Positions 33,785-46,858 of a DNA stretch of 64,000 nt are shown here, in pieces. Below the pieces are notes generated by a model. It was not told the DNA's origin. It did no database searches and saw only the letters and a list, made by a program, of their open reading frames with translations. The stretch comes from Escherichia phage ECML-183-2. Location: sequence record OL631481.1. One strand, written 5' to 3'. Both the position numbers and the translations under genes were made by a program. Each line of letters begins with the position of its first letter. Positions within the stretch are counted from its first letter, which is position 1.

Positions 33785-34015
33785 TTAATAGACAATTTCA
33801 TATTCGTGAGGAAAGAAAACATAATCTTCCCCTTCTCGTGCATCTATCTCGTCCCAAAACCATTCCTGCACTTCCATCATCTTCGAGAATCGCACATGAG
33901 CAAGCCCACTGTATTCCACAGTAGCTTCCAACACAAGTGGAAATTTTGCATGGACAAGTCCTTTATAACCACCATCATTCTCAATACGAATTTTCATGCG
34001 TTTCATGTTATGCAT
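33785..34015 (-). CDS. hypothetical protein (76 aa), paralog of 29450..29671
   Basis: Shared EDYVFF segment. Confidence 0.45.
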   Translation of the reverse strand: MHNMKRMKIRIENDGGYKGLVHAKFPLVLEATVEYSGLAHVRFSKMMEVQEWFWDEIDAREGEDYVFFPHEYEIVY

Positions 34016-34217
34016 CCTTCAGACCCTTAATAAAGTAACGACCAACCGGATTCCCTCGGAAGTATTCGTTAATGAAATCGATAACACACGTTTCACTGCC
34101 TGTCACAACGGACGGCTTAAAGTTTTGGAATTCTACAGCTACACGGCTGGCTTTAGCCAGTGCTTGCACACGTGTAGGATCAGTCAAGAACATTGTGACA
34201 GTTTTCAAATTCTTCAT
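34008..34217 (-). CDS. hypothetical protein (69 aa)
   Basis: ORF track. Confidence 0.45.
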   Translation of the reverse strand: MKNLKTVTMFLTDPTRVQALAKASRVAVEFQNFKPSVVTGSETCVIDFINEYFRGNPVGRYFIKGLKDA

Positions 34218-34266
34218 TTCATCTCCTCATTGGCTATCTGTTATGTCGTCCATTATACAAACATCT

Positions 34267-34605
34267 TTATTCAATGCAAGCATTATTTGCATCTTCAATG
34301 CGATCTTTCACCCACTGAAGACGTAACTCGTTGGTATGACACGCTAAACCTATGCACTCTGAAAGGTAATCCATGCAATCTGCATTAAACGGGAAATTGT
34401 AATCTAGTCCTGCACCAATAAACTGGGATTTCATCTCTTGTTGTAGACGAGGTAACAGTTCATCAGGGTATGTTCCCTCTACATACTTAATCAAACATAT
34501 GCACAAACCACTCGTTGTGTGACCTTCTACCTCACCAGCAAGCCAAGCTTTGTAAAACTTCATTAGACGTAAACTACTTAACGGAACATTTTTACTCTCT
34601 TGCAT
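34267..34605 (-). CDS. member of six-copy paralogous family
   Basis: LMKFYKAWLAGEVEG ... NFPFN ... CHTNELRLQWVKDRIE; GAGGAG RBS. Confidence 0.5.
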   Translation of the reverse strand: MQESKNVPLSSLRLMKFYKAWLAGEVEGHTTSGLCICLIKYVEGTYPDELLPRLQQEMKSQFIGAGLDYNFPFNADCMDYLSECIGLACHTNELRLQWVKDRIEDANNACIE

Positions 34606-34944
34606 GACAATCTCCTCTCATCGTTAGCCATCTTTCATGGCAATCATCAATCACCAACATCATACGATCAATCTTAAGGAATTACAATCGAATTATCATA
34701 GGGGATTCCTATCAATTATCCCATATATACCGATTATTTTTGACACCCCATTCTTGTATAAAAAGTAACCCAAAATATCCACGGGGAGAGATTATTTCGA
34801 CACACCCTGTTTCATGGCAATCATGGCAAGAATATCTAATAGAATCAATATCATATGGCAAAAATCATGGCGCATACGTAAGAAGTGCTTAACGCGAATT
34901 TTCGGGCCGTCAGGTCCACGCAGCGACAATTCCCAAATATCATG

Positions 34945-34967
34945 CGAATGAGAATAATTATCATTCG
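34945..34967. promoter_or_regulatory. Fur-box-like palindrome
   Basis: cgaatgagaataattatcattcg; near-perfect dyad, ~13/15 match to TGATAATCATTATCA. Confidence 0.3.
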
Positions 34968-35126
34968 TATTCAATGACTTATGCAAGGCTCATGCCAACA
35001 TAGCGACAAGGTGGGCCACCTGATTATAAATCACACAAACACTTATTTATCAATGGTTTGGCAACTTCATCATATGACGGAACAATGTCAACTAATCCCG
35101 CTCATGACAGACGGACTATTATTTAT

Positions 35127-35145
35127 ATGAGAATGATTATTATTT
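35127..35145. promoter_or_regulatory. Fur-box-like site
   Basis: atgagaatgattattattt. Confidence 0.25.
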
Positions 35146-35379
35146 AAACGTTTATTAACATATAAACTAAAATAAATCAAGAATTTTCTGATTTTATTTA
35201 CGTTTAAGAGAAGGTGCTCAACATCCTACCGGATCGCCGTTGGCAATCCTCGGATATTTACGCCCCCATGATTAAGGTTTATCTCTTTTATAGCTCAACA
35301 TTCCCGCCTGTGGCGGTAACATTTCGCCCCCAAAATTATTGACTTTTATTCTATTATGTGCATAGTGTGCAATGTATCG

Positions 35380-35397
35380 GAATGATGATAATCATCC
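35380..35397. promoter_or_regulatory. Fur-box-like site
   Basis: gaatgatgataatcatcc; ~13/14 match to ATAATGATAATCAT. Confidence 0.3.
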
Positions 35398-36181
35398 TCC
35401 CATTGCCCCCATAATTATTGCCATGCTAATTGTTTCATTACGTAATTATTACAATGACTATTGTTATTGCGCTAATGTTATGATCTTGGTAATTACATAT
35501 AATGCTAATAATAAGCCAGCGCAATAAGTGTAAGCGTCATTACGCTTGCAATTATTGCAAGCTACGCAGTAACAAGAAATAACCATCACCGATGGTTATG
35601 ATTGTTGGGGTGTAGTTGGCTTATTATTAGCTCGCTATGTGTCCGGCATAGCGTGCTAATGATGACTCTGTGAATGATTCGTTTTGTAATGATTTCATTC
35701 AGGCACTATTTTGCTAATAGTTATTATTTTAATGGTTTCGTTTGTTATTGTTCGTTAGTTGGTTGTTTTGTCGTGTTATCGTTATTTTGCTTAGTATTTA
35801 TCATGGTTTGATTGTTTGTCGTTATCAATCATCTTGCTATTATTCCTTTGATTATGATTAGTTTGCTTATTGTTTTATGTTGTTTGTTGGTTAGTTGTTG
35901 CGAACTATTATCAACATTATAATTATGCGCTTATATTGCATAGATAATCATGGGTAGATGATAATGGTTATCATTGCACTAGAAAGGAGGTAAAAGGGTG
36001 TTTTTGATGGTTTGTTGTTGGTTGTTGATCGATTTTAACCGCTCTAAATAGCTCTCTAACAGCCTGTTGCCCTGGGATGTATGGTTATTCGTTTAATGGT
36101 CGATTAGCTCGATACCGTGATTTATTCAGTTTTGTTCTGTGTCGGTTTTTCATAGGCGAAAGCTATCAACATTGTTCGGGC

Positions 36182-36208
36182 AAAAAGAAAGGGCGCTTTG
36201 TGCGCCCT
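36182..36208 (-). terminator. rho-independent terminator closing the cassette array
   Basis: rc reads AGGGCGC-loop-GCGCCCT + TTTCTTTTT. Confidence 0.6.
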
Positions 36209-36223
36209 GGTATGAAATGTTAT

Positions 36224-36607
36224 TTACTGATAAGCTGGATCGTTTGTTATATCAATCCAATGAGATAAATTAATTTTATTTTTTGCTTTCATTTTCTCGA
36301 TCAAACGTTCGGCTAATGTCTCGGAACGAATATAAACGTTTTCGCTAAAATCTTGCCCCGTTTCTTCGTCGATCATCTCACGATATTCGATTTTTCCGAT
36401 AAACGCGTGATTCAGCGCATAAGTTTTACCCGTGTACCAGTTATGCAAATGGATCTCACATTTATAATCATCGCTATACCCTTCGGTTGTTCTAACTTCA
36501 ACCAGGTCGCCTTTAAACACTGATAAGCACCACATAGGATCACGGTCTACAGCGCCGTTAAAGTCTTTACCGTTTACAGTCGCTGCCAGGTTGATGATAT
36601 TGCTCAT
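36224..36607 (-). CDS. hypothetical protein (127 aa)
   Basis: Track ORF trimmed to ATG after promoter; N-terminal track extension runs through leader. Confidence 0.5.
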   Translation of the reverse strand: MSNIINLAATVNGKDFNGAVDRDPMWCLSVFKGDLVEVRTTEGYSDDYKCEIHLHNWYTGKTYALNHAFIGKIEYREMIDEETGQDFSENVYIRSETLAERLIEKMKAKNKINLSHWIDITNDPAYQ

Positions 36608-36653
36608 GGTGATTCCTCGTTTACCGTTTAAAATGATTTGCCCTACGTGATAA

Positions 36654-36682
36654 ATAATAATGCAAGCGTGATCCGGTGTCAA
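36654..36682 (-). promoter_or_regulatory. sigma70-type early promoter (first cassette of array)
   Basis: rc reads TTGACA - 17 bp - TATTAT. Confidence 0.5.
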
Positions 36683-36856
36683 TAGGTAAAATTGTAAAGA
36701 TTTGATAGTTTGTTCCTTTGATGTTTTGTTGTTTGATAGGCGTTAGTTATCAATATATAGCGGGGTCTTCCGGTGATTATCTTCCCCTGCTCCCAGGTGC
36801 CGCCCGTTCAATAAGTATAACAAAAAATAGGACTATTGCAAGCCCTATTTATTATC

Positions 36857-36991
36857 TTAAAACCAGGTGCCAACCGTTTCCAATAGGTCACTGACTACAA
36901 GGACAACACTGATCAGCACATGTTCAACCATGAAAGGGATAAGCGCCAGCGTTGCTACTACGATCCCCATTGTGATGATTACCTTTCTCAT
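36857..36991 (-). CDS. small membrane protein (44 aa)
   Basis: Not in ORF track; hydrophobic; no clear RBS; coordinates hand-derived. Confidence 0.3.
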   Translation of the reverse strand: MRKVIITMGIVVATLALIPFMVEHVLISVVLVVSDLLETVGTWF

Positions 36992-37278
36992 TGTTGGCGG
37001 TTTACGTAAGCTTTACCGTTTACGGTCATCGGTATGGCCTCAAGGTCTGGATCTTCCTTAAGGTCGCGTGCAAGCTCACCGCAGCGGATACCCTCGAATC
37101 CGTAGTACTCTGTTGTGCCGTCCTGGAAAGTTTTAGCGGCAAGGCATAGGCGATAATTAACGCCGATCCGGTTTATTGCGTTGATATCGGTTAGCGTGAT
37201 GGATTCTGGCAACTCATTAGCCAGTACAGGCGCGTTAATACCAACAACCAGGGCAACTACTGCGATCATCTTTTTCAT
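36988..37278 (-). CDS. secreted protein with signal peptide (96 aa)
   Basis: MKKMIAVVALVVGINAPVLA signal-peptide-like. Confidence 0.5.
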   Translation of the reverse strand: MKKMIAVVALVVGINAPVLANELPESITLTDINAINRIGVNYRLCLAAKTFQDGTTEYYGFEGIRCGELARDLKEDPDLEAIPMTVNGKAYVNRQQ

Positions 37279-37332
37279 GCGTCTATCCTCTTCCTATTGC
37301 GTTTAATGGGGCGTTACCGCCCCGCTTATGGT

Positions 37333-37569
37333 TTATTGATTGATGTTATGATGAAAGTTATTTTCTTCAATAGCTTTTAAAATAAAAGCCGTGATCGCTT
37401 TCGTGTCTACTTGTTCGAACGTATCAGAATAAGCCCAATAATAATCATCCCCTACTTTCGGCGGGTAAACCTGGACAAGGAGATCGCCACCTGGTTGATC
37501 TATAAGCTCAACATGTAAGCCGGATGATTCAGCGGTTTTAACGGCGTTTAATACTGTTGCAATACTCAT
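37333..37569 (-). CDS. hypothetical protein (78 aa)
   Basis: ORF track; GC hairpin 37307-37322 downstream. Confidence 0.5.
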   Translation of the reverse strand: MSIATVLNAVKTAESSGLHVELIDQPGGDLLVQVYPPKVGDDYYWAYSDTFEQVDTKAITAFILKAIEENNFHHNINQ

Positions 37570-37613
37570 AATCTTTTCCTTTCTGATGTGGGGCGTTGCC
37601 GCCCCTTTGTTGA

Positions 37614-37913
37614 TTAGATCGCTGTTTCCAGTAGTTCGGCTAACGTCTTACCGCCTGATAGTTGGTCTAACGTTTGCTCTTCTGGCAAGAAATTAGCTGA
37701 TATTAATCCGACTTGATTTCCTTTGTGCCAATTAGCTTGACGGATGATTCCATCCTTTAAAGATTTTACCGCCATTGTGCAACCGTCGCCAAATGATTCA
37801 TTTTTATGATCCATTACTTCATAAGCGCCCAGCTTGCTGCTGTTAGGCACCATTAACGCGAATACATCACCAACAACCAGCTTTTCTACGGTAACAATAG
37901 CGATAGTTTCCAT
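37614..37913 (-). CDS. hypothetical protein (99 aa)
   Basis: ORF track; GC hairpin 37590-37605 downstream. Confidence 0.5.
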   Translation of the reverse strand: METIAIVTVEKLVVGDVFALMVPNSSKLGAYEVMDHKNESFGDGCTMAVKSLKDGIIRQANWHKGNQVGLISANFLPEEQTLDQLSGGKTLAELLETAI

Positions 37914-37930
37914 TTTACTTTCCTCATTAT

Positions 37931-37986
37931 CGGCGGCACCATTGCCGCCCTACGCATTAAATATAAGTTATCTAAGAGATTAGATC
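37931..37986 (-). promoter_or_regulatory. PeSL-like cassette (early promoter + 5' stem-loop)
   Basis: rc: TTGATC-17-TATATT then GGCGGCA-ATGG-TGCCGCC hairpin. Confidence 0.5.
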
Positions 37987-37991
37987 AAGGA

Positions 37992-38183
37992 TTATTTTGT
38001 AAAGATTACAGCTTCATCAAAATTTTCAACATAGTAAGCAAGCTCTTCATTTGCTGCAACCATTCCTAAAAGTTGGCTATAAGATAAACCTTTGATCCCT
38101 TCCTCGTTGTTTAATGCTTCGATGATTTCATCAACGGGCGCAAAAAACATGTTATTCGATTCCAGGTAGGAGATGGTTTTCAT
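37992..38183 (-). CDS. hypothetical protein (63 aa)
   Basis: ORF track; own cassette upstream. Confidence 0.5.
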   Translation of the reverse strand: MKTISYLESNNMFFAPVDEIIEALNNEEGIKGLSYSQLLGMVAANEELAYYVENFDEAVIFTK

Positions 38184-38204
38184 AATGTTTACCTTTTTCG
38201 GGGA

Positions 38205-38260
38205 GCGGCACCATTGCCGCCCTACGTGGTAAATATTAGCACACTGGCGATCTGTGTCAA
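38205..38260 (-). promoter_or_regulatory. PeSL-like cassette
   Basis: rc: TTGACA-16-TAATAT then GCGGCA-ATGG-TGCCGC hairpin. Confidence 0.55.
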
Positions 38261-38266
38261 TACTTT

Positions 38267-38653
38267 TTATTCAATATAAATCAAATTATCTTCACCAATG
38301 TAAGCCGACACGTTCGGCATAAACTTAGCTGCATTGGTTAGGCGGTTCGCCGTGTTAGTGGTGTATATTTCAGGGCGATCCCAAAAGCCTACGCCGTGAC
38401 CGTTACGGGTAAAATGTAAATCATTCCCGATCTGGTTGGCTGTTGCGCCGTCGCTCATTGCCTCAGAGATAGCGGCAAGATTAGCATTAATAAAGGCTGT
38501 TACATCCTGGGCGATCCGTTGATGGGCTTGATCTGAAAAATCATAATCAGTCATGTCATCTATAAAATTACCTTCATGATCCCTTGCGGATTCAGCAAAA
38601 ATAAAGGCTTCTTTATAACCGTTGATGATTTCAATAATGATTTCTGTTTTCAT
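38267..38653 (-). CDS. hypothetical protein (128 aa)
   Basis: ORF track; conserved-looking GHGVGFWDR segment, family unknown. Confidence 0.5.
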   Translation of the reverse strand: MKTEIIIEIINGYKEAFIFAESARDHEGNFIDDMTDYDFSDQAHQRIAQDVTAFINANLAAISEAMSDGATANQIGNDLHFTRNGHGVGFWDRPEIYTTNTANRLTNAAKFMPNVSAYIGEDNLIYIE

Positions 38654-38874
38654 GCTGTACGCTCGACAATAATAATAGTTTGCGGGATCTCGTTTTCTAC
38701 TACTAACAAGGCTTTTTTCTGTGTGATAGATATTTTAACACGTTGTAAAGTAGCGGTGAAATCTTTCATTTCATTATGCGCGGACTTCGTGCAATGCCAG
38801 ATCTCAGGCTTACCAACTTGTAAGCCGCGTAAAAATTCCGTTTTGCCTGTTTTGTTCGTGATCATTTGTTTCAC
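38650..38874 (-). CDS. hypothetical protein (74 aa)
   Basis: ORF track. Confidence 0.45.
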   Translation of the reverse strand: MKQMITNKTGKTEFLRGLQVGKPEIWHCTKSAHNEMKDFTATLQRVKISITQKKALLVVENEIPQTIIIVERTA

Positions 38875-38875
38875 C

Positions 38876-38980
38876 TTAACCGATACCGTGGGAAGATAGG
38901 ATCATGTTAGCCATAGTTGCAACCACTCCAACCGATAACGCCAGGCCCACTATTACAACCGTGAAAATTTTCTCTAACAT
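38876..38980 (-). CDS. small membrane protein (34 aa)
   Basis: Track ORF trimmed to ATG with GAGGG RBS; upstream part is hairpin read-through. Confidence 0.45.
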   Translation of the reverse strand: MLEKIFTVVIVGLALSVGVVATMANMILSSHGIG

Positions 38981-38996
38981 GATTCTACCCTCATTA

Positions 38997-39059
38997 ATGG
39001 GCGTTGCACCATTGCCCCGCCCTACGTAATACACTTTACCAGATAACAAATTATTGTCA
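38997..39059 (-). promoter_or_regulatory. PeSL-like cassette
   Basis: rc: TTGACA-16-TAAAGT then GC hairpin. Confidence 0.5.
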
Positions 39060-39124
39060 AGGTTTATTTTACTTCCCAAACGGAAAATTCACTGCGTGGC
39101 GGGAAGTATTCCCCGCCTTATTAA

Positions 39125-39295
39125 TTACTCTTCATCGTCGCCGTTATAGTATTCAATGCCGTTTTCATCGGTTACGGTGATGTTAACGCCACCGATAGCA
39201 ACACGATCACGGGCAAACGTCATAGCTTCATTTAAATCTTCAGACCAAAAAATATTGTGACCTTTGCGCGATACATAAAACATAGTCGGGATCAT
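39125..39295 (-). CDS. hypothetical protein (56 aa)
   Basis: Track ORF trimmed to internal ATG; GC hairpin 39097-39116 downstream. Confidence 0.45.
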   Translation of the reverse strand: MIPTMFYVSRKGHNIFWSEDLNEAMTFARDRVAIGGVNITVTDENGIEYYNGDDEE

Positions 39296-39318
39296 GATTT
39301 GTTTCTCTTCTGTTGTGA

Positions 39319-39379
39319 GCGGTGGACCATTCCGCCGCCCTATGTGGTAAACTTTACTACGTTGTTTGCCTGTTGTCAA
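39319..39379 (-). promoter_or_regulatory. PeSL-like cassette
   Basis: rc: TTGACA-17-TAAAGT then GGCGG-loop-CCGCC hairpin. Confidence 0.5.
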
Positions 39380-39380
39380 A

Positions 39381-39665
39381 TTATTTTTTAATGTTTTGCC
39401 CTACAAAATTGATCACTTCCTTAAGCTGTCTCTCTGTCATGATCGTACCTGGTAACTCTTCTTTAATTTCTTCCGGTAAATAGATATTACCGCGCCAGGT
39501 TAACAAACAACCGTTTTGATCTTCGCAGATAGAATAAGAAAACATCCACTCGCAATCATTTTCAAGCTCCCAAAAACACAAAAAGTCTTCTTTCCCTAAG
39601 TTTTCAACGGTTAAACATAATCCGCGACGTGCTGCATAATTAGTCAGGCTTTTTGTGATTTTCAT
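39381..39665 (-). CDS. hypothetical protein (94 aa)
   Basis: Track ORF trimmed to internal ATG. Confidence 0.5.
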   Translation of the reverse strand: MKITKSLTNYAARRGLCLTVENLGKEDFLCFWELENDCEWMFSYSICEDQNGCLLTWRGNIYLPEEIKEELPGTIMTERQLKEVINFVGQNIKK

Positions 39666-39686
39666 GATTTTTCTCTCTTCTTGTGA

Positions 39687-39742
39687 GCGGCACCATTGCC
39701 GCCCTACAAGATACATATTATCAGACTAGGCGGACTTGTCAA
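39687..39742 (-). promoter_or_regulatory. PeSL-like cassette
   Basis: rc: TTGACA-16-TAATAT then GCGGCA-ATGG-TGCCGC hairpin. Confidence 0.55.
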
Positions 39743-39743
39743 A

Positions 39744-39854
39744 CTATTTTTTCTTTTTCTTTGCTTCCAACCGTCTAAGGTTACGGCTTGACTTATTTCG
39801 CAAGGCGCTTAGATCGTCGTACCCTTTCCATGCTTGCATATCTTTCGGATTCAT
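39744..39854 (-). CDS. small basic protein (36 aa)
   Basis: Not in ORF track; AAGGGG RBS; hand-derived coordinates. Confidence 0.3.
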   Translation of the reverse strand: MNPKDMQAWKGYDDLSALRNKSSRNLRRLEAKKKKK

Positions 39855-39863
39855 GTTATCCCC

Positions 39864-40025
39864 TTACTTGTTAGCCGGATCATATACCAGGACCGCGCCG
39901 CTTGCTTTCACGCTTTCCGCTTCATAGTTGCGCAGATCGTTTTCTGTAAGGTTGAGCGCGATCACTTCCTCGATCTCAACGTCAGCGGCAAGGGCGATCT
40001 CTTTGATAATGTCTGTTGTTTTCAT
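39864..40025 (-). CDS. small acidic protein (53 aa)
   Basis: Not in ORF track; AAGGTG RBS; hand-derived coordinates. Confidence 0.35.
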   Translation of the reverse strand: MKTTDIIKEIALAADVEIEEVIALNLTENDLRNYEAESVKASGAVLVYDPANK

Positions 40026-40035
40026 AGTACGCACC

Positions 40036-40155
40036 TTATAAGATGATTGATAAGATAGTGATAACGAAAGCGATTATACTGATGGCAAATGTCATCTTTT
40101 TACCTTCGGATACTGCCGGATTTTCTACCGTGTATTCTACTGTGTACTTGCTCAT
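40036..40155 (-). CDS. small membrane protein (39 aa)
   Basis: Not in ORF track; C-terminal hydrophobic helix; directly after cassette. Confidence 0.35.
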   Translation of the reverse strand: MSKYTVEYTVENPAVSEGKKMTFAISIIAFVITILSIIL

Positions 40156-40178
40156 CGTGTAATCCTCTCGTTTGCTTT

Positions 40179-40235
40179 GGGAACTATTCCCGCCGCCTTA
40201 TGAATTAAATATACACTATCTCAAAATGATTGCAA
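40179..40235 (-). promoter_or_regulatory. PeSL-like cassette
   Basis: rc: TTGCAA-16-TATATT then GGGAA-TAG-TTCCC hairpin. Confidence 0.5.
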
Positions 40236-40252
40236 GCCTTTTTCTAAATTAT

Positions 40253-40537
40253 TTATGCAGTAAACAAACCATCATTTACAACGGCGGCGATGATCTCCCG
40301 TGCCATTGATTCAGGGAAAGGGGCGCTATAGTCCTGGCTTGTCTCATCGGTATCAGTGATCCAATGATAAGCTAACGAGTAAAAGCCTTTACTAACTGTT
40401 TTCAGTGAGATGATGATCACTCGGTCAAGCTTATTGGTGAATGTTGCCGTTAATGTGTTACCCTCCTGCGTCATGTTGGACAAGTAAGCGGGATCATTAA
40501 TCAGGGAAAACATTAGCACGGTGTTAGCTTTACTCAT
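40253..40537 (-). CDS. hypothetical protein (94 aa)
   Basis: Track ORF trimmed to internal ATG; the track ATG lies inside the hairpin loop. Confidence 0.5.
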   Translation of the reverse strand: MSKANTVLMFSLINDPAYLSNMTQEGNTLTATFTNKLDRVIIISLKTVSKGFYSLAYHWITDTDETSQDYSAPFPESMAREIIAAVVNDGLFTA

Positions 40538-40557
40538 GATTGCATCCTCAAAGGGGC

Positions 40558-40612
40558 GCGGCACCATTGCCGCCCTACACGATAACTATAACACAATGTA
40601 AAACAGGATCAA
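40558..40612 (-). promoter_or_regulatory. PeSL-like cassette
   Basis: rc: TTGATC-16-TATAGT then GCGGCA-ATGG-TGCCGC hairpin. Confidence 0.5.
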
Positions 40613-40815
40613 CCTTTATTTTTCCACGGTGTCAGCTTGTTAATCATTGGTGATAAATAGCGTTTACCAACGTAAAACAGTACGCCAACTGATGCAACGG
40701 CGGCGATCTCATGTAAGGAGGAAGGTCGCGCGGTGTCATAATAGGTACCAATAATAGCAATAGCGGCTACTGCGGCAATGTCTGTAATAATTTTTTCTTG
40801 TTTTGCGGTGATCAT
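40609..40815 (-). CDS. small membrane protein (68 aa)
   Basis: Track ORF trimmed to internal ATG; two hydrophobic segments. Confidence 0.5.
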   Translation of the reverse strand: MITAKQEKIITDIAAVAAIAIIGTYYDTARPSSLHEIAAVASVGVLFYVGKRYLSPMINKLTPWKNKG

Positions 40816-40838
40816 AATATTTACCTTTTTGTATGGTG

Positions 40839-40895
40839 GGGGAACTATTCCCCGCCTGATGTAATACAGTTTAACAGGTCCGGTTATGGTGTCAA
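40839..40895 (-). promoter_or_regulatory. PeSL-like cassette
   Basis: rc: TTGACA-15-TAAACT then GGGGAA-TAG-TTCCCC hairpin. Confidence 0.5.
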
Positions 40896-40901
40896 CCACT
40901 T

Positions 40902-41087
40902 TTAAAGATATTTTATATTGATAACGTTTTCAGGTTTAACCTTGTTGTGATGTGCATCAACATAGATCAAACCATCGTCAGAAAAGCCCAGGATCACGCC
41001 CTGCGCAATAAAACCGTATTCGTCACGGTAACGCACGGCTATTTTTAACGTTGCGTTGTAGGCTGTTTTAAGCTCGTTTAAAGTCAT
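40902..41087 (-). CDS. hypothetical protein (61 aa)
   Basis: ORF track. Confidence 0.45.
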   Translation of the reverse strand: MTLNELKTAYNATLKIAVRYRDEYGFIAQGVILGFSDDGLIYVDAHHNKVKPENVINIKYL

Positions 41088-41108
41088 TTTTGTTTATCCT
41101 CTACATGT

Positions 41109-41136
41109 AAAAAGAAAGGGCGCTTGGTGCGCCCTT
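41109..41136 (-). terminator. rho-independent terminator inside the array
   Basis: rc reads AAGGGCGC-ACCAA-GCGCCCTT + TCTTTTT. Confidence 0.6.
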
Positions 41137-41142
41137 GTTATG

Positions 41143-41289
41143 TTAATCCTCTAAATCCATCCAATTATATTTGTCACTCTTCCCGCGCTTTGTTTTATTA
41201 CGCTTGTCGCCTTTTCGGATCACTTCCTCGTTCCAGGCCTTGCGGATCTTGGAAGATTGAATTTTTTCTGCGCGATTAGATGTATTCAT
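41143..41289 (-). CDS. small basic protein (48 aa)
   Basis: Not in ORF track; AAGAGGA RBS; Lys/Arg-rich. Confidence 0.4.
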   Translation of the reverse strand: MNTSNRAEKIQSSKIRKAWNEEVIRKGDKRNKTKRGKSDKYNWMDLED

Positions 41290-41309
41290 TTTGTTTCCTC
41301 TTTATATGA

Positions 41310-41362
41310 GCGGCACCATTGCCGCTATATTATTAATTTAAACTGTTTTGTAAAATTGTCAA
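41310..41362 (-). promoter_or_regulatory. PeSL-like cassette
   Basis: rc: TTGACA-16-TAAATT then GCGGCA-ATGG-TGCCGC hairpin. Confidence 0.5.
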
Positions 41363-41368
41363 GGTTTA

Positions 41369-41722
41369 TCATTGATAAGAGCAAGCAAGGATCACGCCTG
41401 CAATATAAAGCCAATAATTTTCCCTTTCTCGTTGGATTTTATCATCGCTGCTATTCTCTTTAATGTATCCCCAGGATGTTAACAGGCGATCAATTTCCCA
41501 ATATTCGAAAGCGATATTGATATCTGATGGCAAGCCTTGTAACCATGATGCAAGTGCTTTAACAATACTATAATTAAAACGTGATTGGTTATCAGGGTAC
41601 CAGTACTCGGAATTAAAACGGTGCATCAATTCCGCGATCTTCTCTTTTTCGGTTGTAATACCGTAATCATTAAAATCGATAGCGGCAAGGATGTACTCTT
41701 TAATTGCATTTTGTGCTTTCAT
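41369..41722 (-). CDS. hypothetical protein (117 aa)
   Basis: ORF track. Confidence 0.5.
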   Translation of the reverse strand: MKAQNAIKEYILAAIDFNDYGITTEKEKIAELMHRFNSEYWYPDNQSRFNYSIVKALASWLQGLPSDINIAFEYWEIDRLLTSWGYIKENSSDDKIQRERENYWLYIAGVILACSYQ

Positions 41723-41741
41723 GGTCTTTCTCTCTTTTTGA

Positions 41742-41798
41742 GCGGGAACTATTCCCGCCCTACGTGTAACAGTTTACTAAAAATTAAATCCGTGTCAA
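41742..41798 (-). promoter_or_regulatory. PeSL-like cassette
   Basis: rc: TTGACA-16-TAAACT then GCGGGAA-TAG-TTCCCGC hairpin. Confidence 0.55.
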
Positions 41799-41801
41799 GC
41801 T

Positions 41802-42023
41802 TTATTTTGTTACTACCATTTGGTACCCTGTTTCAATGTTAGTAAATACTGTTATCCCGTCCTGGCGTTCACTCATTAGCATACAAGGCGCTAACATCCT
41901 TTCTACTGCCTTGCACTCATTGTAAACGGCGGTTATGTCTCCTGCGGCCTTGTCTTCTGTGGTGAATGTATCGTTTACGTAAACCTGACCAGCGACAACG
42001 GCGACAATAGCGAAAGTGATCAT
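41802..42023 (-). CDS. hypothetical protein (73 aa), shares MITFA 5' end with next-upstream gene
   Basis: ORF track; first ~20 nt of CDS plus RBS duplicated at 42245-42270. Confidence 0.5.
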   Translation of the reverse strand: MITFAIVAVVAGQVYVNDTFTTEDKAAGDITAVYNECKAVERMLAPCMLMSERQDGITVFTNIETGYQMVVTK

Positions 42024-42054
42024 GATGTTTCCTTGTTAGTAGTGGTTTCTCTTC

Positions 42055-42095
42055 TCTATAGCGCCCATTGTAAGGCGCTATAACGAAAAGTCAAC
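42055..42095 (-). promoter_or_regulatory. variant cassette (promoter overlapping TATAGCGCC hairpin)
   Basis: rc: TTGACT-16-TACAAT with 9-bp-stem hairpin overlapping. Confidence 0.4.
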
Positions 42096-42097
42096 GA

Positions 42098-42265
42098 TTA
42101 TTTTTTAAGGCTTAAAGTACCTAACTTGTCAGCATGACGCAGACCAGGGAAGATCCATTTGCCTGATTCATCTTTCACCGGGGCTTTAAGCGTAGCGCCC
42201 AGGTTGGCGGCGTTAACTTTACGTGCAACGTTGCGAGCGGCTTCACGGGTAGCGAAAGTGATCAT
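42098..42265 (-). CDS. small protein (55 aa) starting MITFA
   Basis: Not in ORF track; hand-derived; same 5' end as 41802..42023. Confidence 0.4.
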   Translation of the reverse strand: MITFATREAARNVARKVNAANLGATLKAPVKDESGKWIFPGLRHADKLGTLSLKK

Positions 42266-42289
42266 GATATTTTCCTCTTCTCTTTGTTA

Positions 42290-42351
42290 GGCGGTGGACC
42301 ATTCCGCCGCCTTGATGTAATACAGTTTACTTTATTTTTGCAGTATTGCAA
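42290..42351 (-). promoter_or_regulatory. PeSL-like cassette
   Basis: rc: TTGCAA-16-TAAACT then GGCGG-loop-CCGCC hairpin. Confidence 0.5.
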
Positions 42352-42357
42352 GCGGTT

Positions 42358-42570
42358 TTATGAAATAATCGTCAAAGTAAAATTGTAATCACCTGATTGA
42401 TACAATACTTTATCACCGAACGTTCCAACACGTTTAACATTGCAATATATACCCATAACACTTTTTACATCTTTGATATTCTTCACGCCTGTAATATCTT
42501 TATTAAAATGATCGTGATCAGAAAATAAAACTTGTTTTGCATTTTTCAACAAGGTGCGGATATTAGCCAT
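42358..42570 (-). CDS. hypothetical protein (70 aa)
   Basis: ORF track. Confidence 0.5.
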   Translation of the reverse strand: MANIRTLLKNAKQVLFSDHDHFNKDITGVKNIKDVKSVMGIYCNVKRVGTFGDKVLYQSGDYNFTLTIIS

Positions 42571-42595
42571 CGTGATAATCTCTCTTCTGTTGTGA

Positions 42596-42651
42596 GCGGC
42601 ACTATTGCCGCCCTACGTAATACAGTTTACTCTTTTTCTTTCCCGTGTCAA
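42596..42651 (-). promoter_or_regulatory. PeSL-like cassette
   Basis: rc: TTGACA-16-TAAACT then GCGGCA-ATAG-TGCCGC hairpin. Confidence 0.55.
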
Positions 42652-42660
42652 CAATCTTTT

Positions 42661-42888
42661 TCAGATTAATTCATCCAGGCATAACAGGCGATCAACGTTG
42701 AGATCGGTTAGGCTGATGGTTGGCACCTGGTAGGATTCGATGTACTCGACGCTCGCATATTCTCCAAAATTAGCAATAGCCCACTTATTCAAGATCTCAC
42801 ATACATCATTAATCTTTTTGTTTGTTACAACTGCTACAACCTGGGAACTGCCAACGGTGCCGGATACACGAACAATATTGATAGCCAT
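42661..42888 (-). CDS. hypothetical protein (75 aa)
   Basis: ORF track. Confidence 0.5.
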   Translation of the reverse strand: MAINIVRVSGTVGSSQVVAVVTNKKINDVCEILNKWAIANFGEYASVEYIESYQVPTISLTDLNVDRLLCLDELI

Positions 42889-42911
42889 AATCTTTAATCT
42901 CTCTGTTGTTG

Positions 42912-42970
42912 GCGGGAAACCATTTCCCGCCCTATGTGATACATCTTACACTAATTTTAAACGTTGTCAA
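42912..42970 (-). promoter_or_regulatory. PeSL-like cassette
   Basis: rc: TTGACA-16-TAAGAT then GCGGGAAA-TGG-TTTCCCGC hairpin. Confidence 0.55.
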
Positions 42971-42980
42971 CTGTTTTTTA

Positions 42981-43220
42981 TTACATTCCAACCATCGCGG
43001 CACGGATCGCAGTAGTGCTATATTTGAAACCGTCTGGAGTTTTATCTTGTCCAGTTTGTTCCAGAAAAAGCATCATATCCCGCGCCGCATCATTACGATT
43101 AGCATTAGCGTTAATAAAATCCAAGGCCAACCGATACAATGATTCATCGTTATTAATCCAAAGGCTTACATTCCAATGAGTTTTGTTTTTGTGACCGTTG
43201 TACATTTTAGATTTAGCCAT
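42981..43220 (-). CDS. hypothetical protein (79 aa)
   Basis: ORF track. Confidence 0.5.
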   Translation of the reverse strand: MAKSKMYNGHKNKTHWNVSLWINNDESLYRLALDFINANANRNDAARDMMLFLEQTGQDKTPDGFKYSTTAIRAAMVGM

Positions 43221-43244
43221 GATTTTTCTCTCTTTTTCAGTGAG

Positions 43245-43303
43245 GCGGGAAGTGTTCCCGCTCTCTATGTAATACAGTTTACTCTTTTTATTCGTGCTGT
43301 CAA
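43245..43303 (-). promoter_or_regulatory. PeSL-like cassette
   Basis: rc: TTGACA-16-TAAACT then GCGGGAA-CACT-TCCCGC hairpin. Confidence 0.55.
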
Positions 43304-43309
43304 TGCTTT

Positions 43310-43675
43310 TTATAAATCTTTTTTACGTTTTACATCGCTTGCATGACTGTATACAGTGATCCCATTGTCACGGCAAAAACGGGAAAGATACGCGCCGCGT
43401 GAAAATTCCTTGCCCTCAAGGTTGATAACCTTGCTAAATTCTTCCAGGGCGACGGTATCAAAATGATCACCATAGCCATATTGAAACGGAACGTTAACCA
43501 CCTCGATCAGTTTACCGCCGATCTCAACGTCAACCAGTAAAGAAAAATATGTGTTACCGTAGGACTGTTGAAACCAGCGACGGGCACTAATATGCACCGC
43601 CTCAATGCTGGATAATTCAATTTTAGCCGTGTTAGCCAGGGTAGCATAAGCGGAAACATTGATATTAATAGCCAT
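43310..43675 (-). CDS. hypothetical protein (121 aa)
   Basis: ORF track. Confidence 0.5.
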   Translation of the reverse strand: MAININVSAYATLANTAKIELSSIEAVHISARRWFQQSYGNTYFSLLVDVEIGGKLIEVVNVPFQYGYGDHFDTVALEEFSKVINLEGKEFSRGAYLSRFCRDNGITVYSHASDVKRKKDL

Positions 43676-43701
43676 GGTGTCACTCTCTCTTTTTGGTTAG
43701 T

Positions 43702-43753
43702 GGGAAGTATTCCCGATAAAAGTTATTATGCTTATACTATCACTCATTGTCAA
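43702..43753 (-). promoter_or_regulatory. PeSL-like cassette
   Basis: rc: TTGACA-17-CATAAT then GGGAA-TAC-TTCCC hairpin. Confidence 0.5.
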
Positions 43754-43772
43754 TAGTATAAGACTAAAACTT

Positions 43773-43952
43773 TTAACGATAATCATTATAGGCTTTATTG
43801 ACCTGGCGAATGTAACATTCGAAAGCAAGATCAATGTATTCGTATTCACGCACATAATCACCATAGGTCACTACATACATTTTTAAAGTTTCCTCATAAG
43901 CCAGGAGGATCGAATCTAAACCTATAATCTCAGTTTTTGCAATGATAGCCAT
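43773..43952 (-). CDS. hypothetical small protein (59 aa)
   Basis: Not in ORF track; AAAAGG RBS; hand-derived coordinates. Confidence 0.4.
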   Translation of the reverse strand: MAIIAKTEIIGLDSILLAYEETLKMYVVTYGDYVREYEYIDLAFECYIRQVNKAYNDYR

Positions 43953-43974
43953 GATGTTAACCTTTTATTGTTGG

Positions 43975-44029
43975 CGGCACCATTGCCGCCCTACGTGATA
44001 AACTATACCAGAAGTTTAAACAGTGTCAA
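43975..44029 (-). promoter_or_regulatory. PeSL-like cassette
   Basis: rc: TTGACA-15-TATAGT then GCGGCA-ATGG-TGCCGC hairpin. Confidence 0.5.
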
Positions 44030-44035
44030 CCGTTT

Positions 44036-44398
44036 TTATTCGTAAATTTTACCGCTTTCGGCCCATACCATAACGCGGCGCATACTATCCCAAGTGTTTT
44101 GATCCAGGTTTAAGCCGTGCAACTCTTCGGTACTTCCCAGACCAGGTACCGCTTTGTTGTAAGTCGCATATAAGCGCCCTTGATACTCATACGCCAGAGT
44201 AAGATCCGTTTGAATCATCTTTTTAAGCATAGCATTAAGCATCATATTAGCGGCATGTTGATCACGTTTTAGCGGTAACATGTCAATAAGGGCGCGATAA
44301 GCTGAAACATGAATATCAACCGTTTCACGTGGTAAATTTTTCATATCATCGCGGAAGGACACCAGGTTTAACATGATAGTATTGATTTGCTTGCTCAT
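44036..44398 (-). CDS. hypothetical protein (120 aa)
   Basis: ORF track; AAGGG RBS. Confidence 0.5.
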   Translation of the reverse strand: MSKQINTIMLNLVSFRDDMKNLPRETVDIHVSAYRALIDMLPLKRDQHAANMMLNAMLKKMIQTDLTLAYEYQGRLYATYNKAVPGLGSTEELHGLNLDQNTWDSMRRVMVWAESGKIYE

Positions 44399-44419
44399 TG
44401 TGTTACCCTTTTTTGTTTT

Positions 44420-44480
44420 GGCGGGGAAGTATTCCGCCGCCCTATGTGATACATCTTATCAGATTAAAAAACGTTGTCAA
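44420..44480 (-). promoter_or_regulatory. PeSL-like cassette
   Basis: rc: TTGACA-16-TAAGAT then GGCGG-loop-CCGCC hairpin. Confidence 0.55.
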
Positions 44481-44488
44481 GAATATTT

Positions 44489-44584
44489 TTAGAAAATAAT
44501 AGCCGCTACTACAATCCAAAATGGAACGGCTAGAATGATAGCGTTAATCGTTCCAACCGTCAAGCTATTTTCTTTATTAATCAT
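44489..44584 (-). CDS. small membrane protein (31 aa)
   Basis: Not in ORF track; AAGAGG RBS; hydrophobic C-terminus. Confidence 0.35.
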   Translation of the reverse strand: MINKENSLTVGTINAIILAVPFWIVVAAIIF

Positions 44585-44613
44585 TGTAAGCCTCTTGCAT
44601 AATTTCACTATGA

Positions 44614-44670
44614 GCGGCACCATTGCCGCCCTACGTGGTAAATATTATGCCAGTGGCGGCGATATGTCAA
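44614..44670 (-). promoter_or_regulatory. PeSL-like cassette
   Basis: rc: TTGACA-17-TAATAT then GCGGCA-ATGG-TGCCGC hairpin. Confidence 0.55.
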
Positions 44671-45224
44671 AGACTATTTTCAAAGTTTTCTAGTGCGATC
44701 CTTTTTTCTTCCTCTGTCGGCTGATAATCAGGAAAAGCATCAACACACAACAACGGCGGGATCTCTTCGTACTCTTCCTCTTCCGTTGTCTCCTCGTCTT
44801 CCTCCTGGGCTATGGCTGCAATTTTGGCTAATTTTCTTTCAGCTTGAATCAATTTACCATCAAGTACGTTTTTTGCCATGTTGTAAGCGGTCCAGGTGAT
44901 GCGCTTACTTTCCAGTGCTTGATCAAGCGCCGCTATCTTGCTGGGGTATTCATCCAGGACACGAAAAGCCGGATCAACTTTGTACAAAGGATTATCTTTC
45001 GCGCCGTCGCTCGCATCTTCCGCACTGGATAAATCAGCGTTACCATTTGCCAGCCAGCCAGGGCGCACATAACGCGCTTTTACGTTGCCGTTACTACGTG
45101 CTAATCTGTTACCTATTTGCTCACCACTATATCCCGTGGATTCATCGATAAGATGATCGGGAATGATGCGCGGATCATCTGCTTCATGTTTTACCCAAGA
45201 CTGGATCACATATTCGCGGCCCAT
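44667..45224 (-). CDS. hypothetical protein (185 aa), acidic C-terminus
   Basis: Track ORF trimmed to ATG; no cassette of its own, coupled to upstream gene. Confidence 0.5.
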   Translation of the reverse strand: MGREYVIQSWVKHEADDPRIIPDHLIDESTGYSGEQIGNRLARSNGNVKARYVRPGWLANGNADLSSAEDASDGAKDNPLYKVDPAFRVLDEYPSKIAALDQALESKRITWTAYNMAKNVLDGKLIQAERKLAKIAAIAQEEDEETTEEEEYEEIPPLLCVDAFPDYQPTEEEKRIALENFENSL

Positions 45225-45225
45225 A

Positions 45226-45483
45226 TTAACCACCTTTTTTCAACAATTGGCATACTTTAAAAAGACTTGCTGAATCCTTGCAAGGGTAGAAAGATGTACG
45301 ATAATCACGTACGCCAACCTTGCGGATCTCGATGTTCTCGCATGTTGTTTGATCAAAGATATTTATTTCATCACGCCCCCTTATATAAACATAGTGGGGA
45401 TGTATTAACGCATATTTTGCTAATCTGTAAAAAGCGTTATCTTTGAACGCGATCACGTGACCTTTTAATTTGATGTAAAACAT
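45226..45483 (-). CDS. hypothetical protein (85 aa)
   Basis: ORF track. Confidence 0.5.
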   Translation of the reverse strand: MFYIKLKGHVIAFKDNAFYRLAKYALIHPHYVYIRGRDEINIFDQTTCENIEIRKVGVRDYRTSFYPCKDSASLFKVCQLLKKGG

Positions 45484-45501
45484 TCTACCACCTTACAAAT
45501 A

Positions 45502-45556
45502 GCGGGAACTATTCCCGCTTTATGTAACATATTAACAAATTATTCGTTAATGTCAA
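45502..45556 (-). promoter_or_regulatory. PeSL-like cassette
   Basis: rc: TTGACA-16-TAATAT then GCGGGAA-TAG-TTCCCGC hairpin. Confidence 0.55.
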
Positions 45557-45559
45557 ACC

Positions 45560-45832
45560 TTAAAGCAAAAACGCTACATCTTGCGCTTTTAGTGTAGTAT
45601 CAACCATTTTCGGGCTTTTATAATCAACAAAGCGCGCGGTTTTTTCAATAGCGAAACCGAGATAATCTTGTTTATTGAATTTACATTCTTTCTTAAATGT
45701 TTCCCGCGCCACGGTGATCGCTGCGTCCAGGGATAAACGCCCGTCAATGTTGATATTTGCGAAAGATCCGCCACCGCTCATAGGTTTACCAGTGGTGCCA
45801 GCTACGATCATTGTTGCGCTATATGATGCCAT
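45560..45832 (-). CDS. hypothetical protein (90 aa)
   Basis: Track ORF trimmed to internal ATG. Confidence 0.5.
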   Translation of the reverse strand: MASYSATMIVAGTTGKPMSGGGSFANINIDGRLSLDAAITVARETFKKECKFNKQDYLGFAIEKTARFVDYKSPKMVDTTLKAQDVAFLL

Positions 45833-45857
45833 GATTATAATCTCTCTTCTGTTGTGA

Positions 45858-45918
45858 GCGGCTGGACCATTCCGCCGCCCTATGTGATACATCTTATCAG
45901 GTTGTTGTTTGTTGTCAA
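45858..45918 (-). promoter_or_regulatory. PeSL-like cassette
   Basis: rc: TTGACA-16-TAAGAT then GGCGG-loop-CCGCC hairpin. Confidence 0.55.
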
Positions 45919-45924
45919 TACTTT

Positions 45925-46122
45925 TTATTCTATTCCTGCAATTTGATTAACGCGCTTGCATTTTGTAGCGTGCTGGTCTTCTGTAATGACTCCCATTTCT
46001 AACAGGGAATCAATGAAAGATAAAACCGTTTCATGATCATCCTGGGGATGACTGAACTCAGTAAAACCGTTTACCACGACGCTGATTTGTCCTGCTTTCG
46101 CTACTATGTGCAATGTTGCCAT
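45925..46122 (-). CDS. hypothetical protein (65 aa)
   Basis: Track ORF trimmed to internal ATG with GGAG RBS. Confidence 0.5.
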   Translation of the reverse strand: MATLHIVAKAGQISVVVNGFTEFSHPQDDHETVLSFIDSLLEMGVITEDQHATKCKRVNQIAGIE

Positions 46123-46143: not shown

Positions 46144-46200
46144 GCGGCACCATTGCCGCCCTACGTGGTAAATATTATGCCGCCACCTGGCGAACGTCAA
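46144..46200 (-). promoter_or_regulatory. PeSL-like cassette (last/upstream-most of array)
   Basis: rc: TTGACG-17-TAATAT then GCGGCA-ATGG-TGCCGC hairpin 46144-46159. Confidence 0.55.
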
Positions 46201-46309
46201 TCACTTTTTCAATCTTTTTTATTTTCTTTTTGCTTGCTATATATAAAAGAAAGGGCTATCATCTTTCTACCGCGCCAACCAGGGCGCACATCAAAGAAAG
46301 GGCGATACC

Positions 46310-46576: not shown

Positions 46577-46578
46577 TC

Positions 46579-46607
46579 TTGACAAGCCCAGGGATCGGGC
46601 TTATACT
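46579..46607 (+). promoter_or_regulatory. sigma70-type promoter of unknown target
   Basis: TTGACA-17-TATACT; downstream ~100 nt GC-rich with long-range complementarity, no ORF. Confidence 0.4.
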
Positions 46608-46838: not shown

Positions 46839-46858
46839 AATGAGAATGATTATCATTT
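46839..46858. promoter_or_regulatory. Fur-box-like site
   Basis: aatgagaatgattatcattt; ~15/17 match to TGATAATGATAATCATT. Confidence 0.3.

Follow-up and report, generated by a model that had tools for sequence, protein, structure and literature searches.

The DNA analyzed here, from Escherichia phage ECML-183-2 (record OL631481.1), is a gene-free stretch between two minus-strand genes. It occupies positions 34606–36223 of a 64-kb window (the whole stretch of 64,000 nucleotides, nt, that was analyzed) and lies inside a minus-strand gene block of negative GC skew that occupies about 17–53 kb of it. The best matches to the stretch are Phapecoctavirus genomes (phAPEC8-like), with 95–97% identity over the full length, and about 100 phage records match it. 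Judged by these matches, the window belongs to a member of Phapecoctavirus (phAPEC8-like, Stephanstirmvirinae); phAPEC8-like Stephanstirmvirinae are E. coli myoviruses with genomes of about 150 kb. Some near-identical records across the region are labelled as Campylobacter, Acinetobacter or Pseudomonas phages, host labels that are probably unreliable. The original prediction had singled out the stretch for its palindromes and a GT-rich tract, and had proposed a replication origin, a packaging site or a structured non-coding RNA locus. According to our analysis, with a probability of about 0.8, this region joins the two physical ends of a linear genome that carries short direct terminal repeats (DTRs) of the T7 type, that is, it is the genome-end and packaging region.

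The organizing feature, which the original prediction had missed, is a DTR of 328 bp present in a single copy in this assembly. Exact repeats at both ends of the record are found in Schickermooser (NC_048196; 329 bp), WPEC1 (PV659873; 328 bp) and Klebsiella phage phi1_175008 (343 bp), and in the phi92 record DTR-L and DTR-R are annotated with 343 bp each. At 97–99% identity, the repeats of Schickermooser and WPEC1 correspond to window positions 34890/34891–35218. This mapping implies that the assembly behind the window contains a single copy of the repeat and joins the genome ends, which on its own would account for 1.6 kb of a tightly packed genome without genes. Many independent records start or stop within the stretch, several of them exactly at 34890/34891, and those of WPEC2 and Mt1B1_P17 open at the same base as the DTR. 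By homology, the same sequence is thus expected at both virion ends, as in other genomes with short T7-type DTRs. We hold with high confidence that 34891–35218 would be the DTR and the region a genome-end junction. The order is shared by phi92, BME3, Schickermooser and WPEC1: last gene, terminator, about 1.0–1.1 kb of non-coding DNA, DTR, about 280–350 nt of non-coding DNA and first gene. The repeat itself is already annotated or published for the subfamily. It is given as 328 bp for Schickermooser (PMC6563267) and, by PhageTerm, as 342 bp for BME3 (PMC12210895), and members of Stephanstirmvirinae "terminate with direct terminal repeats" according to a 2025 paper (PMC12695924). Since the DTR is known, the core explanation of the gene-free region is an ordinary one.

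Both borders of the DTR carry the same motif, GCT/YAAC (the slash marks the border), with conserved flanks and in the same orientation (...RGNTGCT/YAAC). We found it at both borders in the window and in the five phages compared (phi92, BME3, Schickermooser, WPEC1 and Klebsiella phage phi1_175008), which represent three lineages. In the window and its relatives, the outer border reads GTGCT/TAACGCGAWTTTC and the inner border TTTAAGARA..GCT/CAACA. Across the 64 kb, TGCTYAAC has five copies on the plus strand and two on the minus strand, and two of these copies are the DTR borders. GCT/YAAC is probably the site at which terminase would cut. With both cut borders and the DTR inside the region, the packaging-site option of the original prediction is supported. 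Within the genus, identity is lowest at 35206–35285, falling to 0.34 at 35246–35285, where a lineage-specific insertion lies next to the inner border.

The four palindromes quoted in the original prediction are all present in the 35300–35700 area. A naive count of perfect hairpins is unexceptional for the region. The segment 35490–35670 folds far better than its shuffles (z = −8.1 for plus-strand RNA, −6.75 for minus-strand RNA and −9.6 for plus-strand DNA), and none of 200 shuffles folds as well. Our results show that the palindromes are parts of one plus-strand fold of about 150 nt, a Y formed by a three-way junction (P1–P3) and followed by a hairpin (P4), and are not protein-binding dyads. 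In an alignment of ten sequences from Phapecoctavirus, Justusliebigvirus and Klebsiella-infecting relatives, 14 of the 53 pairs show compensatory double changes. When 20 distinct sequences are considered, 99.4% of the cells pair, as against 91.4% in column shuffles and 24–53% when the partners are slid by 1–3 columns; double changes affect 15/53 pairs, and the observed values are reached in 0/500 shuffles. All helices covary and three G-U pairs are invariant. P1 swaps GC for CG, AU for CG and GC for AU on both arms, more than 100 nt apart, and such paired changes on distant arms are not expected of binding half-sites. A covariance model detects one copy per genome in fixed orientation, with 141–187 bits in isolates, IMG/VR and metagenome contigs. 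The distance from the start of the fold to the physical genome end is 538–625 nt in six phages of three lineages.

The non-Watson-Crick cells comprise 105 G-T in 12 columns on the plus strand and zero A-C, and the plus strand is more stable than the minus strand by 14–26 kcal/mol in 20/20 sequences. Taken together, these two results indicate that the folded strand is the window plus strand, which has its 5′ end at the right genome end. We consider it very likely that the Y fold is real and specific to this strand. No match to Rfam 15 was found at the gathering score anywhere in the window; in the region, at E-values up to 10, only chance-level matches appeared (eukaryotic and archaeal snoRNA families and two bacterial families). 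No plus-strand terminator was found after P4. The structured-locus option of the original prediction therefore stands as far as the structure is concerned, which covariation supports; the element may act as RNA or as single-stranded DNA, and no conserved plus-strand promoter accompanies the fold.

Several other observations concern the fold. The palindrome at 35546–35564, GCTTGCAA-NNN-TTGCAAGC, is invariant in 20/20 sequences and, as it shares positions with both the 3′ arm of P2 and the base of P3, could form an alternative hairpin that excludes them; its invariance gives no covariation. An alternative partner for the 3′ arm of P1, TTATTATTAGC, is GCTAATGAT just past P4 (35620–35663), which would extend P4 to 17 bp; this pairing lacks covariation support in the Klebsiella and metagenome lineages. 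The apical loop of P3 (35579–35599) reads ACC in Phapecoctavirus and GGT, the reverse complement, in Justusliebigvirus. Perfect palindromic insertions of about 20 nt make P2 longer in both Justusliebigvirus and KP2025. Loop inversion and palindromic insertion are the type of change expected from template switching within DNA palindromes. Distant copies were also sought. In Av-05, which is Vequintavirinae-like, the fold is not recognizable (12.9 bits, E-value 0.27), and one IMG/VR pattern match (L025) is a chance match inside a gene; all other pattern-scan matches are Stephanstirmvirinae-like contigs.

The tract at 35700–35950 that follows the fold is real and is the most keto-skewed 250 nt of the 64 kb, but its description as almost only G and T was overstated. 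It contains 69.3% G+T (T 51, G 18, A 20, C 10), with 85% in the best 60 nt, and the mean keto content of 250-nt windows across the 64 kb is 50.3% (standard deviation 4.3). The GTT repeats noted there are weak (Tandem Repeats Finder score 30, period 7). In every lineage, the roughly 300 nt after the fold have 5–12% C, a GC skew of +0.22 to +0.55 and 70–77% A+T; only in Phapecoctavirus are they T-rich, whereas Justusliebigvirus and the Klebsiella phages have an A/T/G-rich equivalent. The richness in G and T is thus a trait of one genus, a point that the original prediction did not see, superimposed on a C-poor tract that all lineages conserve. In the window, a minus-strand RNA of the tract (35669–36030) would read as A/C-rich and G-poor. 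The composition fits a minus-strand RNA that loads Rho, an origin stretch prone to melting or hybrid formation, or depletion of C through single-stranded exposure of the plus strand. Across the 64-kb window, GC skew and AT skew track gene orientation, with only a local blip at the GT tract; the skew check proposed in the original prediction thus gave a GC skew that follows the direction of transcription, with no replication-type switch at the locus. At 34000–46000, where genes lie on the minus strand on both sides, the composition shifts at the locus, from a GC skew of about −0.2 and an AT skew of about 0 on the left to about −0.05 and −0.15, respectively, on the right. This shift fits the abutting of two gene modules, the left and the right end of the genome.

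In all, about 970 nt of non-coding right-end DNA (35219–36189), the fold and the tract included, separate the DTR from a hairpin that has the properties of an intrinsic terminator and sits 15 nt past the stop codon of the last gene. Its stem and A-run are nearly invariant in all lineages, and it is annotated in the phAPEC8, Schickermooser and Paula records. Apart from this terminator, no conserved secondary structure was found in 35990–36215 on either strand. Av-05 is 81.5% identical over window positions 36100–36207, which extend into the terminator. Its gene-free gap (Vequintavirinae; L020 726–2642) measures about 1.9 kb and shares only the terminator-side block and a TAATGGTTATCATT box with the window. 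A gene-free gap is also seen in vequintavirus-like phages (rV5, PMC3606486 Figure 2). The coordinates of all features are given in Table 1.

Table 1. Positions of genes, repeats, motifs and structures at the gene-free stretch (window coordinates; strand where one is assigned)
Feature	Position	Strand	Remark
First gene (left)	34267–34605	-	adjoins gene-free stretch
Left-end unique non-coding leader	34606–34890	-	promoter-like sites toward first gene
Promoter-like TTGTAA-17-TATGAT	34687 to 34659	-	consensus match
Promoter-like TTTATA-18-AATAAT	34762 to 34733	-	consensus match
Promoter-like TTGCCA-18-AATAAT	34820 to 34791	-	consensus match
Outer DTR border	34881–34902	+	candidate cut motif AAGAAGTGCT/TAACGCGAATTT
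DTR, 328 bp, single copy in this assembly	34891–35218		placed by homology to exact end repeats of relatives
Fur-box-like 9-1-9 palindrome AATGAGAAT-A-ATTATCATT	34944–34968		15/19 and 14/19 to GATAATGATAATCATTATC; in DTR
IHF-consensus sequence TATCAATGGTTTG (WATCAANNNNTTR)	35048–35060	+	mid-DTR; perfect consensus in all three lineages
Second Fur-box-like palindrome	35129–35147		14/19; in DTR
Inner DTR border	35201–35226	+	candidate cut motif TTTAAGAGAAGGTGCT/CAACATCC
75-bp lineage-specific insertion	35219–35293		between two GCTCAACAT copies; absent in Schickermooser
Third Fur-box-like palindrome	35378–35399		15/19
Iteron-like GCTAAT(N2)TT repeats	35425–35503	+	upstream of fold
Inverted pair TTATTGCGC/GCGCAATAA	35464–35527		quoted in original prediction
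Y-shaped element (three-way junction and hairpin)	35504–35653	+	fold and covariation
P1, 15-bp outer stem	35504–35518 with 35617–35631	+	encloses P2 and P3
P2 hairpin	35521–35558	+	inside P1
Palindrome GCTTGCAATTATTGCAAGC	35546–35564		quoted in original prediction
P3 hairpin	35561–35616	+	inside P1; apical hairpin 35579–35599
Palindrome AACCATCACCGATGGTT	35581–35597		quoted in original prediction
P4 hairpin	35633–35653	+	after P1
Inverted pair CGCTATG/CATAGCG	35633–35653		quoted in original prediction
AT-rich, C-poor tract	35669–36030	+	T/G-rich in this genus
Fourth Fur-box-like palindrome ATGATAA-TGG-TTATCAT	35954–35978		14/19 and 15/19
Conserved block adjoining terminator	36086–36189		76–82% identical to Justusliebigvirus
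Intrinsic terminator AGGGCGC-ACAAA-GCGCCCT then TTCTTTTT	36190–36208	-	7 pairs (6 GC); conserved
Last gene (right)	36224–36682	-	adjoins gene-free stretch
E. coli-type copies of outer-border segment	NZ_CP024257 (L037 5001–5079); NZ_CP126938 (L036 4001–4079)		82–84% identity

Short motifs are found on both sides of the fold. The left leader contains a weak internal duplication of about 177 bp, and positions 34686–34765 are 70% conserved with Justusliebigvirus. Inside the DTR, the blocks conserved in three lineages are the terminal AACGCGAWTTTC, two Fur-box-like palindromes, the IHF consensus and a AAATCAAGA..TTCTGATTT dyad. Copies of GCTAAT(N2)TT lie at 35425, 35471, 35504, 35626 (minus strand), 35655 and 35713, and both flank and overlap P1. 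The hexamer GCTAAT is modestly enriched, with 7 occurrences in the region and 33 in the other 62 kb, and irregularly spaced; repeats of this type are present in every lineage, in varying copy number.

The four Fur-box-like sites of the region resemble E. coli Fur boxes (GATAATGATAATCATTATC, or arrays of NATWAT hexamers), to which they are 14–15/19 identical, with the same 9-1-9 dyad and conservation across genera. The palindrome at 34944–34968 is kept in the DTRs of phi92, BME3 and the Klebsiella phage, and the phi92 counterpart of the one at 35129–35147 is GATAATGATTATCATTTAC, with 16/19 by hand count on the alignment. That at 35954–35978 is the best-conserved short block of the C-poor tract, and its TAATGGTTATCATT is kept in the vequintavirus-like Av-05. 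Matches of at least 13/19 number 11 in the 1.6 kb versus 49 in the other 62 kb, and those of at least 14/19 number 7 versus 15; in Markov-simulated sequences of the region, the mean counts are 1.3 and 0.27, respectively. Relative to the simulations and to the other parts of the window, Fur-like boxes are thus 9- to 18-fold enriched. The same palindrome recurs in a second gene-free region, at 46836–46918, so that these boxes could equally be the operator of a phage-encoded regulator. This second region (46200–47385) has a near-consensus promoter, TTGACA-17-TATACT (46579–46607, plus strand), followed by a GC-rich, structured-looking stretch, Fur-box-like palindromes at 46836–46866 (16/19) and 46894–46918, and CTTTAAATTTTG...TTTTGTAAA repeats; no Rfam or tRNA match was found in it. 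The accessible records and papers, a set that does not include the original phi92 paper, note the repeat only, without cut motif, fold or repeated boxes, and we found no described non-coding element, origin or transcriptome in the literature on these phages. Three features appear undescribed: the cut motif common to both borders, the Y element and the clustered Fur-box-like palindromes.

The region has no high-identity match in E. coli genomes, the sole host match being a segment of about 80 nt over the outer DTR border (window 34862–34942, including GCT/YAACGCGAA), which is 82–84% identical to an E. coli segment. The E. coli copy lies directly 3′ of a gene for a 183-aa serine recombinase (Pfam Resolvase). 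It is present in 242/5426 complete E. coli genomes (about 4.5%) and on an IncF plasmid. On one chromosome, it belongs to a degraded-prophage-like island of about 12 kb at tRNA-Leu that encodes an O-like replication initiator, a weak major-head match, a split tape measure, a Dit-like protein and an integrase; between this island and the window, no match was found besides the 80-nt segment. The segment could be a mimic of a packaging signal, a target site of the recombinase or a relic of transfer.

What we observed is the DTR homology, the border motif, the lack of coding and the fold with its covariation, strand and position; from these we infer all functional assignments. In the model that we favor, the junction of two genome ends, terminase would recognize GCT/YAAC, a cut at the outer copy starting a genome and a cut at the inner copy of the next junction ending it. 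Cutting in this way would require that the repeat be duplicated during maturation. From the end that is the first to enter the cell, the host-type promoters of the left flank would direct transcription inward into the first small genes. At the other end, the conserved intrinsic terminator would stop the last gene well before the junction, and the C-poor tract, through its G-poor minus-strand RNA, would keep read-through off the junction while supplying easily melted DNA. GCTAAT repeats, Fur-like palindromes and the IHF consensus might assemble a packaging or end-replication complex. At the right end, the Y fold would take part in replication or maturation, in the form of single-stranded DNA or of a plus-sense transcript; it could be a loading or priming signal for a T7-like primase-helicase, or help to copy the repeat. 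That the fold acts in end replication or packaging is plausible, if slightly short of probable.

A number of points weigh against this model. The position of the DTR is a homology-based placement taken from the mapped ends of relatives, and a third copy of the motif, GCT/CAACAT at 35293, leaves an uncertainty of 75 bp in where precisely the inner border falls. Two cut motifs in direct repeat are not enough on their own to account for the duplication of the repeat. The left-flank promoters are putative, called from their consensus only. Likewise, the Fur-box-like palindromes are consensus matches only, candidate sites that could bind host Fur or a phage regulator, and the IHF consensus occurs at chance level in the window (6 matches versus 7.4 expected). 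As for the fold, no conserved plus-strand promoter was found at a fixed offset upstream of it, its exposure as single-stranded or transcribed plus strand is putative, and the G-T excess could partly reflect a G/T mutational bias of the plus strand.

The stretch might instead hide small protein genes, such as a 17-aa hydrophobic peptide at 35998–36051 or hydrophobic peptides in the GT tract, or might simply be decayed, functionless DNA, for example gene remnants. For the former speak a strong Shine-Dalgarno sequence (AAGGAGG) with a GTG start at 35985–36000, ahead of the 17-aa open reading frame (ORF), and the few homologous records that list 6–8 tiny hypothetical proteins here, nearly all others leaving the region without annotation. 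The original prediction of no credible ORF is nevertheless borne out, the longest ORF in 34606–36223 on either strand having at most 64 aa and none being conserved. We compared 17 ORFs of 17–64 aa with an alignment of ten relatives, and none of the 17 is preserved across genera. The phage phiWec179, about 80% identical, breaks 15/17. Of the two that it leaves intact, one is broken in closer relatives and the other, at 35742–35861 (plus strand), stays open only within Phapecoctavirus. All 17 are broken in 3 or 4 of the 4 Justusliebigvirus sequences. In phiWec179 and Justusliebigvirus, the 17-aa ORF retains neither its Shine-Dalgarno sequence nor its start codon, and we rejected the small ORFs, this one included, for non-conservation; hidden genes are thus very improbable. 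Scanning of the window revealed no tRNA or transfer-messenger RNA genes. Decay could be read into the indel-prone segment 35219–35293 and into the resemblance of the outer DTR border to DNA flanking a recombinase gene in E. coli islands, but it is hardly credible given the block-wise conservation across genera that otherwise share little DNA, the compensatory changes and the conserved architecture and distances to the genome end.

The main rival, which is compatible with a genome-end junction, would place a replication origin at 35400–36030: an initiator would bind GCTAAT, the Y fold would form in a plus-sense transcript or in the displaced plus strand, and the tract would melt or hold an RNA-DNA hybrid that primes the leading strand, as in the persistent-hybrid priming of ColE1 and T4 oriF/oriG. 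T7 has secondary origins near its genome ends. Every lineage has the repeated GCTAAT motifs and, next to them, an AT-rich tract of the kind expected of an unwinding element; its positive plus-strand GC skew has the polarity that favors a plus-sense RNA hybrid and a displaced plus strand, the strand of the fold, and WPEC1 is annotated with a DNA primase/helicase. We regard an origin as possible but tentative, since the repeats are irregular and only modestly enriched, no initiator gene is adjacent, the 1.6 kb contains no perfect DnaA box TTATNCACA (boxes with one mismatch number 5 versus about 2 expected, which is not significant) and a conserved promoter is lacking. Skew in the window also follows gene orientation, as it does in rV5 according to its authors (PMC3606486). 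The right flank could alternatively be mainly a transcription insulator, in which the terminator is followed by unstructured, C-rich and G-poor minus-strand RNA that loads Rho, and stable hairpins halt any residual read-through that would otherwise cross the junction and, in a concatemer, enter the early region of the following genome. The conserved terminator agrees with this, as do a minus-strand RNA with 5–12% G and more C than G in all lineages and a T-run after the P3 apical hairpin on the minus strand. Such a role is rather doubtful, because the fold is selected on the plus strand, the minus strand having 105/1060 cells (10%) A-C mismatched, and because an insulator needs neither a covarying three-way junction nor a fixed distance to the genome end. 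This fixed distance is not expected of an ordinary small-RNA gene either, and we consider it unlikely that the Y element is a stand-alone plus-strand RNA gene with a role unrelated to the ends, for instance in host or phage gene regulation. Covariation in all helices, the invariant G-U pairs, the constant advantage of the plus strand under RNA parameters and conservation in isolates, IMG/VR contigs and metagenomes are what an RNA gene would show. Against it stand the missing upstream promoter and plus-strand terminator, the absence of an Rfam match even at an E-value of 10, and the 5′ arm of P1, which covaries and abuts variable repeat DNA.

The junction of genome ends can be compared with known systems. 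With the ends of phi92 and other Stephanstirmvirinae (DTRs of 328–343 bp) the window shares homologous DNA, the DTR, border motif, terminator and gene order, and it is itself a member. The T7/T3 junction reportedly has a 160–230-bp terminal repeat with flanking non-coding repeat arrays, early promoters at the left end, and pacB with a hairpin-forming inverted repeat near the right end. In T7, the early promoters face inward at the left end. Likewise, the present region has a short exact terminal repeat within more than 1 kb of non-coding DNA, inward left-end promoters, and right-end repeats with an inverted repeat near the terminal repeat, and in both cases the mechanism of repeat duplication is unresolved. 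It differs from T7/T3 in the absence of sequence similarity, in belonging to a myovirus apparently with host-type promoters, in the same cut motif at both borders and in a covarying three-way junction instead of a simple hairpin. The outer stem around two hairpins recalls the T-shaped hairpin of the adeno-associated virus inverted terminal repeat, as well as rolling-circle hairpin origins and single-strand initiation signals, with a strand-specific fold and repeated binding motifs that overlap the outer stem; the resemblance is topological only, and here the fold lies 538–625 nt inside the end of the molecule with no Rep-type nickase nearby. Like the packaging RNA (pRNA) of phi29, the Y element is a three-way-junction nucleic acid encoded near a phage genome end, but it lacks an Rfam match and its transcript is putative, and phi29 is protein-primed and has no DTR. 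The injection-stop region of T5, which lies within the long terminal repeat, is non-coding over about 1.5 kb and contains many repeats and palindromes. The present region is similarly gene-free near a genome end and dense in direct and inverted repeats, whereas its repeat-dense part is found at the end that is predicted to enter last and not within the terminal repeat.

How phages with exact DTRs recognize their ends and regenerate the repeat from concatemers is unresolved (review PMC13595956). The variety of start points among the records of this phage group, which is widely isolated for therapy, shows that genome ends often go unplaced; GCT/YAAC at both borders would give a base-precise landmark for orienting these genomes. 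For packaging or end replication, the region also supplies a few candidate cis-elements, each of which can be mutated on its own. Among them, the strongly supported fold has a defined polarity and position, and its strand specificity predicts which DNA strand or transcript is exposed in maturation or replication. More speculatively, the Y element may represent a new structured nucleic-acid class at DTR ends. Such an element could, as a folded single strand, prime or direct the duplication of the repeat, load the replicative helicase at the right end or be a plus-sense packaging-initiation RNA. A further, related possibility is that the 80-nt border segment, with its cut motif, serves as the actual packaging signal, in which case the E. 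coli copies would be mimics through which those elements are packaged by these phages. The interest of the fold would be greater if it takes part in repeat duplication or packaging, and the Y element could help to explain how such phages copy and package their ends.

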